A DNA stretch of 64,000 nt, from NCBI GenBank assembly GCA_951406725.2, contig OX597814.1, positions 140,306,001-140,370,000 on the forward strand. Direction: 5' to 3'. Positions 8,611 through 59,960 of the stretch are shown piece by piece. The DNA comes from Octopus vulgaris (taxonomy: Eukaryota). The notes under the pieces are model-generated. The model saw nothing but the letters and a program-made list of their open reading frames with translations, was not told the DNA's origin and did no database searches. Made by a program: the position numbers and the translations under genes. Positions within the stretch are counted from its first letter, which is position 1, and each line of letters opens with the position of its first letter.

Positions 8611-10203
8611 GCAGCTCAGCATTAGAGGTTGAAATTTTGTTCCAACATTCCATTATCATATTGATGAAATGACTTATGTGCAAGTGCTCTTAATGGAATC
8701 AACCTGTTAGCAACAGTTTTTTCTTTTGTTTTTGTTTTTTTGTGGTGTATTTTTTTGTGTTTTTTTGGCTGAAAGGTAGCACTGAGAGAAAGTCAGTAAA
8801 TGAAAGAGGGTGATAGTTAAAAAAAGGTTATGGCTGTGTGGTTAAGAAGTCCACCTTGTAGCCATGTGGTAATTAAAACAATTAATTAATGATGATACAT
8901 TGCTAATTTTAATGAAATACAAGCAAAACATTCTGGGCACCCTAAGTGTGTATGTTCTATTAATGATGGATGTTGAATGTGAACCCAGTTGTAAACCACA
9001 TTGATAAACACCAACTATGACCAATTTGTAGTAGTAGAAATATTTATGATACAGCTAGCATGGTAACAATGCCGGTAAATGGAGTTGGGACTGCCTTGTA
9101 TACAAATAAATACAATAAATGCTCATGCAGAGAAAAATCAAAATGTACTTTGATGAATCTCTGTGAGTACAAATTTTATATATAAATGTACCATGCACAC
9201 AAGGGGAGGGTCCTATGTTTACATTGGGCAGACAGCTGATTCATTTAAGAATCGTTACTGTAATCCTGTTGCCAGCTTTAAGACAATCAATAAGAGACAT
9301 TCAACATCTTTGGCAGATTTTGTATGGTGACTGACAGAGGATAAAGTGAAGTGCAACATTAACTGATCCATAGTAAGGTATGCAAAACCATACAATATAA
9401 TTTCCAGGAGATGCCATCTCTGCTCCAAGGAATCCCTGTCTATTCTGTAGACTAATGAGAAGATAATTAATAGTATTTCTGAATGATTTTCGAGATGCTG
9501 ACACACATATAAATGTACTTTCACACAATGCAGTGAGAATGAATTTTGAGTAACCGTTAACTTAATTTACTTTAAGGTATGGATGACTTAAGTTTAGTTT
9601 TAACCTCCCCATTCATATAACCACCAAGTAGATAACTAACTCGCTTTGTGATCATGAGTGCACCAAACCTCACATTTCTGTGGATGCTTGTATGAGCGAG
9701 TGTACTCAGCCATGCAGCTTGCCCGAGGGTGTTTACACATCCATATTTGTTAACAATTATTTTTAATACTTTTCTCGCTGGATTGCATGTCCTTTTTTTT
9801 TTTTTGCCACCTGTGATTTTATTTTTGATCTTCTATATAAATGAAGATATTTCCTCCGTCTGGCTACTTTTCTCTCAACAAAACGGTAAGTTACATTGCA
9901 GAACAGTCATTTTAACGAGTTGTATTTACTTATTACCCGACAAGATACATCTGCACTACCGGATGCTCCTGAACCAGTTGCTGAATGTCCCACCCAATAG
10001 GAATCGATGCTAGATGTGTTGAAACAATTTGTCACGATTAATAATAAATTCTCATATATTCCATCTTCCGTCTTTCATTTGCCATATATCTGTGTGTATG
10101 TATATATATATATATATATATGAGTTTGTATGGATGTGTATGGAAGAATATATTAATCAATGAAATTCTAACAGTCTGGTTTTCACTTTTTATTATTTTC
10201 AAT

Positions 10204-10357
10204 TTTACAGTATTGAAATAAATTTGTACTTTCATGCATTACGCACTCATCAGGTTTATGGAGTGACAACTATGTCAATTGTGGAACACAACTGTCACCA
10301 CATAAACCTGATGATTGCAAAATGCATGAAAGTACTAGTTTATTTCAATACTGTAAA
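10204..10357. repeat. Intronic palindrome with a minimal hammerhead motif in each arm
   Basis: Arms at about 10204-10268 and 10293-10357 are reverse complements. Confidence 0.9.
10302..10343 (+). ncRNA. Minimal type-I hammerhead ribozyme motif
   Basis: ATAAAC-CTGATGA-tTGCAaaaTGCAt-GAAA-GtaC-TA/GTTTAT: 6-bp stem I, all core bases present, palindromic AGTACT stem III; the 10.1-11.1 position is a U.U mismatch. Confidence 0.75.
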
Positions 10358-10539
10358 TATCAAAACACACACACACATATATATTACTTTTGATTCACCA
10401 GTTCTATAGTTCATGTATGGAAATATAATTTTAAAATTTATAATATATACGTCATGGTGTTTGTGTTGGTTTTAAATTTATATTGATATTTTCTATTTTT
10501 CCATCTCTGTCACACATTCTCTCTCTCTCTCTCTTTCAG

Positions 10540-10734
10540 TTCTGTGAAAGCAATGATTTAGAATTCCTGCCTATGCGTTGTTGGATTGGATTCTGGGTTA
10601 CTGTGATAGCCGCAGTAGTTGTGGCCTTAGAAGGCAGCTTTCTCGTGAAATTTGTTACCAGATTCACAGAGGAAATTTTTGCTATATTGATTTCTCTTAT
10701 CTTTATCTATGAAGTCATTAAAAAATTAACAGAT
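10540..10734 (+). CDS. SLC4 exon (TM4-TM5)
   Basis: tttcag|TTC to GAT|gtaatt. Encodes FCESNDLEFLPMRCWIGFW...EGSFLVKFVTRFTEEIFAILISLIFIYEVIKKLTD (RFTEEIF motif). Confidence 0.96.
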
Positions 10735-10853
10735 GTAATTATGTTTACTTATTCTTATTTCTTTCTTTTCTTCTTCTTGCATTCACATCAGTATCACCTA
10801 AGAATTTTATAATTCCTTAGCTTGCAACTTCATTACAGTTTAATAGTATATTA

Positions 10854-10902
<49 letters not shown>

Positions 10903-11378
10903 TAAATTAAATTAGAGATAAAACCACTATTAGGCAAATCAAACAATGAAAAACATAAACCAAAACATAAAAATAATTAATATAATATACAAAATATATA
11001 AAATTTAAATTATTTAAATTTAAAATTATTAATTTATATTTATAAATTTTTAAATTTTATATATTTTGTATATTATATTAATGTTTCATAACTGACACGT
11101 ATAAAGCACCCACTACACTCTTGGAGTTGTTGGCATTAGGAAGGGTACCATGCCAAATCAGATTGAAACCTGGTGCAGCTTACCAGTTTTGTGCCAAAAA
11201 TTGTCCAATCCATGCCAGCATGTAAAATGGACAATAAATGATGTTACCTCCTATTAAGCTGGCACTGTTTGCTTGCTTCCAAATGCTTTTATAGACTCAT
11301 TGTGGTTGCTTTCTAACAAATCTCTATTGGTATCAACATTCTTTCTGCTTATACCCTGTCATAGATATATCCTAATTA

Positions 11379-12290
11379 AGGTGCTGAGCTGGCAGAATTG
11401 TTAGCACACCATGAAGGTGGTGAGCTGGCAGAATCGTTAGCATGCCGAACGAAATGCTTAGCGGTATTTCATCTGCTGCTACGTTCTGAGTTCAAATTCC
11501 ACCGAGGTCGACTTTGCTTTTCATCCTTTCAGGGTCAATAAATTAAGTACCAGTTACACACTGGGGTCGATCTAATCAACTTAATCCCTTTGTCCATCCT
11601 TGTTTGTCCCCTCTATGTTTAGCCCCTTGTGGACAATAAAGAAATAAGAATTGTTGGCACACCAGGCAAAATGCTTAGTGGCATTTTGTCTGTCTTCACA
11701 TTCTGAGTTCAGATTCCACTATGGTCAACTTTGCCTTTCATCATTTCGGGCTCAATAAAATAAGTACCAGTTGTGTACTGGGGTTGATGTAATCAATTAT
11801 CTCCTCTCCTAAATTTCAGGCTTTGTGCCAGTAGTAGAAAGGATTATTATTGTTATTATTAAGGCAGCAAGCTGGCAGAATCGTTACCACACTGGACAAA
11901 ATGCTTAGTAATACTTCACCTGTCACTACATTCTGAGTTCAAATTCTGCCAAAGTCGACTTTGCCCTTCATCCTTTGTGGGAGGAGTTCGATAAATTAAG
12001 TACCAGTGAAACACTGAGGTCAATATAATTGATTAGTTCTCTCCCTCAAATTTCCAGGCCTTGTGCCATTAGTAGAAAGGCAGTGGGTTGGGAGAAGCAT
12101 TAGCATGCCTAGCAAAATTCTTGGCTCCATTTCATCCATTTTCACATTCTGCTTAAGTCAGCTTTGCCTTTTATCCTTTTAGGGTCAATAAAATAAGTAC
12201 CAGTTGAACACTGGTATCAATGTAATAAACTTAACCCCCCATCCACCAAACTTGCTGGCCTTGTGCCAAAATTTAAAATTATTATTATTA
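11379..12290 (+). mobile_element. Cluster of about 4 SINE A copies, tandem and nested
   Basis: The copy at 11412-11646 sits inside another copy with an 18-bp TSD agaattgtt(a/g)gcacacca. The cluster ends directly before the 12316 acceptor. Confidence 0.85.
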
Positions 12291-12315: not shown

Positions 12316-12639
12316 ATTTATCAAAAATACCCATTGATAGCTGATTGTGAATCCTGTTGTCCAAATATTGTTCTTCCAAGCTTCAATAGCAGTAATTCTT
12401 TAGAACCAGTGTCTGAAATACCATACACTCTATTTAATTCCTCCATGGGTGCCACAGCGGACCAAGCTCACATGACAACTGAGTCTGGGGTTGAGGAGAA
12501 TTTAAAAGGTCAAAATCGTTACACAAAAAATTCTAATCAACCAAATACTGCACTGCTGTCAACAATTTTGGCTCTAGGAACATTTTTTATAGCATATTTC
12601 CTCAGAATATTCAGAAATAGCAAATTTCTTGGGAGAAGT
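12316..12639 (+). CDS. SLC4 exon (large extracellular loop 3 and TM6)
   Basis: tacag|ATT to AGT|gtaagt, 324 bp, phase 0. Encodes IYQKYPLIADCESCC...QPNTALLSTILALGTFFIAYFLRIFRNSKFLGRS. Confidence 0.95.
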
Positions 12640-59689: not shown

Positions 59690-59960
59690 TATTATTAAGT
59701 TTGAAAATAGAGAGATCTAATGGATAAAATCAATTTATTAATCATCAGGGTGTACAAAGAACAATACAAGGATTACACATATTCTGAGTATTCCAACGGA
59801 TCATAATGTAATCCTTGTCCTTTGTACACCCTGATGATGCAAAATTATATATTTATATATGTTTTGTAGCTATAATTTTGTTTGTGAAATGAAACAATTG
59901 TATGTGAATTAATTAATTTGTATCCATTAGATCTCTCTGTTTTCAAATTTAATAATATAT
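59690..59960. repeat. Palindrome with a degenerate hammerhead (59827-59906, +)
   Basis: tttgaaaatagagagatctaatggata pairs with tatccattagatctctctgttttcaaa, and atcatcagggtgtacaaag pairs with ctttgtacaccctgatgat. Core reads CTGATGA...GAAACaattGTA. Confidence 0.75.

Follow-up and report, generated by a model that had tools for sequence, protein, structure and literature searches.

We conclude that the palindrome in an SLC4 intron of Octopus vulgaris is very probably an old insertion of a Penelope-like element (PLE), in which two hammerhead-bearing ends of the element lie head to head, and that the hairpin they would form in the SLC4 pre-mRNA would hold the ribozyme closed and is a likely target of ADAR. 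The window, i.e., the whole 64-kb stretch of DNA that was analysed, contains the following features of interest:

10097–10121, no strand: (TA)n tract in which the element probably inserted; a second PLE-like copy has its 3' end here
10122–10268, minus: antisense pLTR stub, about −45 to +120 from the cut site, by alignment to the long copy L136
10122–10150, minus: terminal tail of about 30 nt of the antisense stub, a tail seen in many family copies
10204–10357, plus: predicted pre-mRNA hairpin, from folding and A>G changes in one RNA contig
10218–10259, minus: antisense-arm hammerhead, inactivated, with U16.1 and G1.1 changed to A and a private G at 10.1
10269–10272, no strand: head-to-head junction (−45/−65) within the element's self-complementary 5' end
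10273–10357, plus: tailless pLTR stub in sense that lacks its 3' part, −65 to +20
10302–10307/10338–10343, plus: stem I, 6 bp
10308–10314, plus: core CUGAUGA
10315 and 10327, plus: U.U at 10.1–11.1, closing stem II
10316–10319/10323–10326, plus: stem II, 4 bp, with a 3-nt loop
10328–10331, plus: GAAA, then GUAC
10336, plus: U16.1, in the palindromic stem III/loop AGUACU
10337, plus: A17, next to the predicted cut
10540–10734, plus: SLC4 (bicarbonate transporter) coding exon (HCO3_cotransp PF00955, E 4.9e-25)

The arms at 10204–10265 and 10296–10357 differ at 7 of 62 positions, and the hairpin of the inverted repeat has a folding energy of −83.2 kcal/mol (z −14.9), with 0 of 200 shuffles equally good. 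The sequence-only reading had placed the limits of the palindrome at 10204–10357; the palindrome is real, but these limits are too narrow, and alignment to a long copy carries the left arm to about 10122. Judged by such alignments, the true insertion spans 10122–10357: two pLTR stubs, both 5'-truncated, meet head to head, and the pair sits in a (TA)n tract. Many family copies likewise have (TA)n at their ends. On checking for a target-site duplication, both ends of the insertion were found to abut simple repeats and the right end to be short; a tail is present at one end only.

The sense arm carries a minimal type-I hammerhead with an intact core on the plus strand at 10302–10343, the only match of our own type-I descriptor on both strands of the whole window. 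All required core positions (C3 U4 G5 A6 N7 G8 A9, G12 A13 A14, A15.1-U16.1 and H17) are present, while the usual 10.1–11.1 pair, mostly G-C, is absent and is replaced by U.U, as it is family-wide. The cut is predicted between 10337 and 10338, 202 nt 5' of the exon start at 10540. Further CTGATGA words in the window were rejected as hammerheads by the descriptor. An Rfam scan of 9000–11500 gave no hammerhead family at E ≤ 10 and only miRNA-type hairpin matches below the gathering threshold; minimal PLE hammerheads often slip past Rfam. Most of what had been read from the letters about this motif was borne out by sequence and descriptor alike: the complete type-I core with a 6-bp stem I, a minimal hammerhead of the Penelope kind with the palindromic stem III AGTACT, a predicted cleavage after 10337 and about 200 nt before 10540, and an antisense arm whose cleavage site is dead, with A at 16.1 and 1.1, and which has G at 10.1. 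The sense orientation, which had also been pointed out, is true of one arm and uninformative, because whichever way a palindrome inserts, one of its arms will lie in sense; the hammerhead of the other arm runs against the sense of the SLC4 transcript.

The insertion belongs to a dispersed family in the octopus genome. A search of the animal's own genome gave 493 first-look candidates, and most of the 40 that were scored are full palindromes with 73–95% identity. The exact core pattern matched 186 times in the genome versus 0 for the reversed control, and a looser core pattern 388 times versus 72. About 600 nt further 5' were common to three of nine single-arm loci, and when this shared 5' sequence was followed, a GIY-YIG C-terminus came up first, and after it copies that have RT motifs, the linker and GIY-YIG together. 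The parent ORF has the motifs GTAMG and YLDD, a CX4CxxC linker and GIY-YIG at its C-terminus; in Pfam, GIY-YIG (PF01541) scored above the cut-off (E 1.1e-5) and RVT_1 below it (E 4e-4). The hammerhead lies about 430 nt past the stop codon of this ORF, in the pLTR. RT plus GIY-YIG homologs of the parent numbered 48 (770–850 aa, identity up to 51%), and no full-length intact parent was found among the 14 genomic stretches examined. The parent is a canonical EN+ PLE. Its clade, assigned by the linker alone (CNDSRCGTC in L130 and other copies), is likely Neptune-type; in PMC8557442, as far as its relevant sections go, Neptune/Nematis elements have a CX2-5CxxC linker between RT and EN and a (TA)n bias, and both traits are present here. 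A younger subfamily (L130–L135, L141–L143) has long open frames, the real ORF reaching about 440 aa, and its hammerhead shows a covaried stem I and a longer stem II. Our search of the literature gave no account of this octopus PLE family, which supplements and Repbase, outside its coverage, may list.

The ribozyme has been kept as a structure in this family. Among subfamilies, stem I occurs as ATAAAC/GTTTAT, TGAAC/GTTCA, TTTAC/GTAAA and TTCAC/GTGAA, and stem II as TGCG/CGCA, TGCA/TGCA and TGTT/AACA. Both stems change in pairs across subfamilies and metagenomic PLEs, with the core, the U.U and the palindromic stem III constant, as judged by inspection, without a formal statistic, on 20 hand-picked variants, several of which are decayed with 0–2 stem pairs. 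A sense hammerhead was found in 20 of 80 related metagenomic PLE loci versus 0 of 400 shuffles, and two of the metagenomic elements (L209 and L213, 56–57% protein identity over the best segment) have wholly different stems and the same U.U at 10.1–11.1. By these comparisons, the hammerhead appears genuine for the element. In another metagenomic PLE, L241, a U3-A8 core variant was seen in both pLTRs.

In 57 arms chosen without regard to the ribozyme, position 10.1 was T in 45, C in 10, A in 2 and G in none. Because 10.1 was never G in these arms and the U.U is kept across subfamilies and a distant PLE, the sense arm represents the family form; as the alignments read, U.U at 10.1–11.1 is the ancestral state and the left-arm G a private change. 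It had been proposed that only the consensus of the two arms is fully intact, which did not hold, U.U being the family norm and the left-arm G being found in 0 of 57 arms; the two-arm consensus was rejected as the ancestral ribozyme on the same count. U10.1-U11.1 is a natural hammerhead variant described in the relevant part of PMC3088659.

The copies have decayed. Differences from the majority amount to 31% at CpG, 9.7% in the flank, 7–10% in the stems and 7.0% in the core. The lower decay of the core than of the flank (7.0% versus 9.7%, Fisher p = 0.035) counted against reading the ribozyme as a passenger, in a test whose 57 arms are not independent and in which alignment-score and base-composition bias remain. 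The core is intact in 26 of 51 copies, and core plus stems in 12 of 51. The sense arm in the window likewise keeps the whole core and all stem pairs, its stem II being preserved through two CpG changes that chance to pair, and by sequence it is not set apart from its sibling copies.

The extents of the copies bear on how the palindrome arose. With 70 of 94 matches examined, 26 of the 70 copies have their 5' end between −60 and −69 relative to the cut site and at most one has it within 9 nt of that site, and the same hot spot appeared in two other samples (15/30 and 10/30). Locus L123 had hinted that 5' ends accumulate where the ribozyme cuts, an idea rejected on this count of at most 1/70. Since the 5' ends lie about 69 nt before the cut site and not at the cut, the templates would have been uncleaved. 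A TATA-like box and TCACT lie just upstream of the hot spot in long copies, as in the pLTRs of A. vaga, so transcription likely starts at this hot spot, about −69. An inverted partner arm adjoins the 5' end in 9/30 and 12/30 loci, the latter sample including the SLC4 copy itself and one palindrome with each of its two arms. The 25 short palindromes compared show 22 distinct junction signatures, three of which occur twice; the longer arm reaches −62 to −72 in 22 of the 25, and many junctions overlap by a few bases. The 3' ends of copies lie near +95 or at +115 to +126, and the two arms of a palindrome usually differ in this respect. Arm identity is 0.878 within versus 0.855 between palindromes (at least 0.95 in 4/25), values so slightly apart that they do not separate fold-back from two templates. 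Two palindromes, L005 and L075 (G000:C3:173654371; C16:12717401 locus), have identical arms, private changes included, and in L075 both arms share a one-base loss in the core; arm-to-arm conversion and a defective source copy are possible readings of these.

If the palindrome were instead a non-autonomous element, MITE-like or a retrozyme, that moves as a unit, the many palindromes of similar size and the three recurring signatures would fit. We consider this improbable: 22 different junctions among 25 palindromes, a majority of copies that are single stubs with the same 5' hot spot, and arms co-linear with the end of an ORF-bearing PLE all speak against it, as do the unlike ends, with a tail on one side. 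The tandem units that retrozymes have (bioRxiv 10.64898/2026.07.22.740005 and PMC6765202, in their relevant parts) are likewise missing, and in contrast to a non-LTR retrozyme, with its tandem hammerhead units, there is a single inverted pair here.

For a PLE insertion made anew at each site, we infer the following course. The RT/GIY-YIG protein of the element would have nicked a (TA)n tract, and reverse transcription would have been primed on an element RNA that was still uncleaved, within its 5' part, some 95 or 120 nt beyond the hammerhead. The cDNA would have run off where transcription begins, roughly 69 nt ahead of the cut site, and, its 5' end being self-complementary, may have folded back or annealed to a second cDNA via microhomology, giving a palindrome with a tail at one end. 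Self-priming was proposed earlier for such inverted junctions in PMC3846280, in the part that treats them. The hammerhead itself would have served the retroelement, assisted by a dimer or a protein; at the SLC4 locus it is very probably a passenger that likely never cuts.

The architecture, the ribozyme type and the editing have each already been described, and the locus is an ordinary one, an insertion of a known kind. The closest counterparts in the papers, as far as their relevant sections go, are the EN+ PLEs Pen2 and Pen2a of Adineta vaga, with an inverted 5'-truncated pLTR, a junction palindrome and a one-sided tail (PMC3846280; scheme in PMC8557442). They share with the octopus family the head-to-head inverted ends, the overlap or palindrome at the junction, a tail of about 30 nt at one end, the TATA plus TCACT initiator, the (TA)n targets and the hammerhead in the pLTR, whereas the octopus arms are reduced to the transcribed part of the pLTR, with no ORF and a hot spot at about −69. 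A one-sided tail of PLEs is given there as optional and 30–40 bp long (PMC8557442). Minimal type-I PLE hammerheads with a small palindromic helix III were described in metazoans by Cervera and de la Pena (2014; PMC4209133), whose relevant part agrees with our data in the type-I form, the short palindromic stem III, the hundreds of dispersed truncated copies and, in some cases, dual motifs on opposite strands 100–700 bp apart; the octopus motif differs in having U.U where G10.1-C11.1 is usual and in lacking the additional nucleotide on the 5' side of stem II. In Poseidon of Anolis (PAc), two internal RT start sites on uncleaved RNA define the tail, according to the relevant part of Frangieh et al. 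(2024; PMC11167929). AT-rich targets, two RT starts that define the tail, an uncleaved RNA template and the priming of both strands are common to PAc and the octopus family, but PAc is of another clade, and the octopus parent has a Neptune-type linker and is known from sequence only.

The family provides data on how inverted ends arise in PLEs, a question still open. The 5' ends at the probable start site and none clearly at the cut, the short-repeat junctions and the one-sided tail fit run-off cDNA from uncleaved RNA, and the octopus family extends the in vitro results on Anolis to a genome census. With the U.U hammerhead, which a distant PLE also has, the list of known variants grows slightly.

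The intronic hammerheads of amniotes, canonical in form, occur in single copy and show deep conservation, whereas the octopus motif is one copy of a repeat in decay, shut within its predicted hairpin. An intronic position in sense is common to the octopus motif and the ultraconserved amniote hammerheads named in PMC6765202. At the octopus locus, exon 10540–10734 is joined to an exon at 12316 in RNA contigs, and spliced contigs occur in 4/4 runs labelled as RNA, the labels being guesses. In the folding model, segment 10296–10350 alone forms stems I and II with P of 0.76 and 0.87, while in full context the hammerhead has P = 0 and forcing stems I/II costs 47.4 kcal/mol; the masking of the ribozyme by the hairpin, as suggested from the sequence, is thus upheld in the model. 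The hammerhead fold stays at P~0 with the observed edits treated as G or unpaired, or with all left-arm A unpaired. Release of the ribozyme through editing was consequently set aside as unsupported by folding, with inosine modelled as G or unpaired. In a dimer co-fold of 10296–10350 the dimeric hammerhead was not the minimum-energy fold, by a method that is weak for a three-way junction. Dimer cleavage is reportedly the subject of a paper by Lunse et al.

The idea that editing or folding gates cleavage of the intron found no support, given P~0 after the modelled edits, a motif that needs a dimer or a protein, and a copy unlike its siblings in nothing. One could still suppose a switch co-opted by the host: the hairpin would now and then be opened by editing, by helicases or by folding during transcription, and the intact sense hammerhead would then cleave the SLC4 pre-mRNA and adjust its expression. 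The intact core with all stem pairs, stems I and II forming in isolation, the likely editing of the hairpin and the presence of the insertion in two other organisms (98.6–99.5%) may be cited for it. We nevertheless regard it as most improbable: the antisense arm is transcribed first, forming the hammerhead would cost 47.4 kcal/mol and stays at P~0 when the edits are modelled, an equally intact state is seen in 12 of 51 siblings, and the edits at 10319–10321 fall in stem II/loop II. Splicing across the intron is normal in the four RNA runs, and cutting an intron need not disturb splicing. Metazoan PLE hammerheads showed no cutting as monomers in vitro and poor cutting as dimers (PMC4209133), and that of the Anolis PLE needed the PLE protein to cut (PMC11167929), as stated in the relevant parts of these papers. 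Only the faintest chance can be given to a version in which editing or unwinding frees the hammerhead and sibling RNA, through stem III, or PLE protein aids the cut in the SLC4 pre-mRNA; if it were true, the stubs of this kind in cephalopod introns, hundreds in number, would amount to a layer of ribozymes gated by editing.

Contigs of two other organisms carry the right arm at the SLC4 site (10328–10740 with 1 difference, and 10307–10740 with 6 differences). The orthologous contigs are 98.6–99.7% identical, from relatives too close to gauge selection, and the motif is not single-copy in the genome. A contig of organism D, considered as a possible empty site, matches only from 10461 on, the letters before 10461 not being shown, and so is uninformative.

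The hairpin is probably A-to-I edited. In the RNA-labelled run X1, one contig (264 nt, depth 2) spans 10136–10354 across the unique junction and has A>G at 10220, 10221, 10228, 10238, 10241, 10319, 10320 and 10321; these are 8 of 12 differences, assigned by depth and cover and read without DNA of the same animal, the other 4 not being listed. The contig keeps the locus-private letters at 10223, 10246 and 10261, and a DNA contig of the locus, 10149–10332, has 1 difference only. None of the eight sites has a 5' G, as ADAR prefers; the ADAR motif avoids a 5' G (PMC5625713, relevant part). Two of them (10238 and 10319) equal the family's ancestral G. Editing is likely because the A>G changes are clustered, the private letters are kept, a 5' G is absent and the DNA contig of the locus is nearly unchanged. 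That the hairpin would be an ADAR substrate had been anticipated, and the eight clustered changes agree with this in one contig, from one of four RNA runs; a check for A-to-G changes in RNA was thus positive in X1, and X8, X9 and X11 gave the exon only, with no locus-specific intronic contig, an absence that is no evidence.

An allele, a paralog or an assembly chimera could also produce such a cluster, and depth 2 in one contig with no matched DNA, the same A>G at 10220, 10221 and 10228 in single DNA contigs of X16/X15 (likely paralogs) and the three other RNA runs without a locus-specific intronic contig leave some room for it. We hold it unlikely, as the contig crosses the unique junction and keeps its three private letters, all eight listed assignable changes are A>G on the strand of the gene with none preceded by G, and the DNA contig differs at a single position. 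With editing as the preferred explanation, it would seem by comparison to be the ordinary fate of such hairpins. Self-folding palindromic repeats are described as ADAR hyper-editing substrates for Xenopus Harbinger and lizard Penelope (PMC5625713, relevant part), where the repeat likewise folds on itself in the pre-mRNA and is A-to-I edited, whereas the octopus palindrome is made anew per insertion and has no palindromic consensus.

Each such insertion makes ready double-stranded RNA and is a likely source of intronic hyper-editing. Cephalopods are an animal group known for heavy editing.

Other repeats were noted in the window and the genome. At 9000–10085 on the plus strand lies a copy, truncated at its 5' end, from another PLE-like family that is more abundant (88–92% identity, 2884 first-look candidates), with a GIY-YIG remnant at 9157–9327; it ends in the same (TA)n tract as the hammerhead insertion. 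Its end has CGAAAC-AATT-GTC, which includes a GUC triplet and a stem III that is palindromic, without a contiguous CUGANGA; upstream of it come CCTGA and GAGG, separated by about 25 nt. This is possibly a split or variant hammerhead core. In the next intron, an AT-only inverted repeat with 53-nt arms, 85% complementary, lies at 10976–11082. At 59742–59837 there is a short palindrome with CATCAGGGTGTACAAAG / CTTTGTACACCCTGATG arms and no hammerhead by the descriptor. Another hammerhead-like family, seen at L292 and L293 (G000:C3:95667324, C3:123003194), has the same AGTACT palindrome with G10.1-C11.1 and stem I GACCA/TGGTC.
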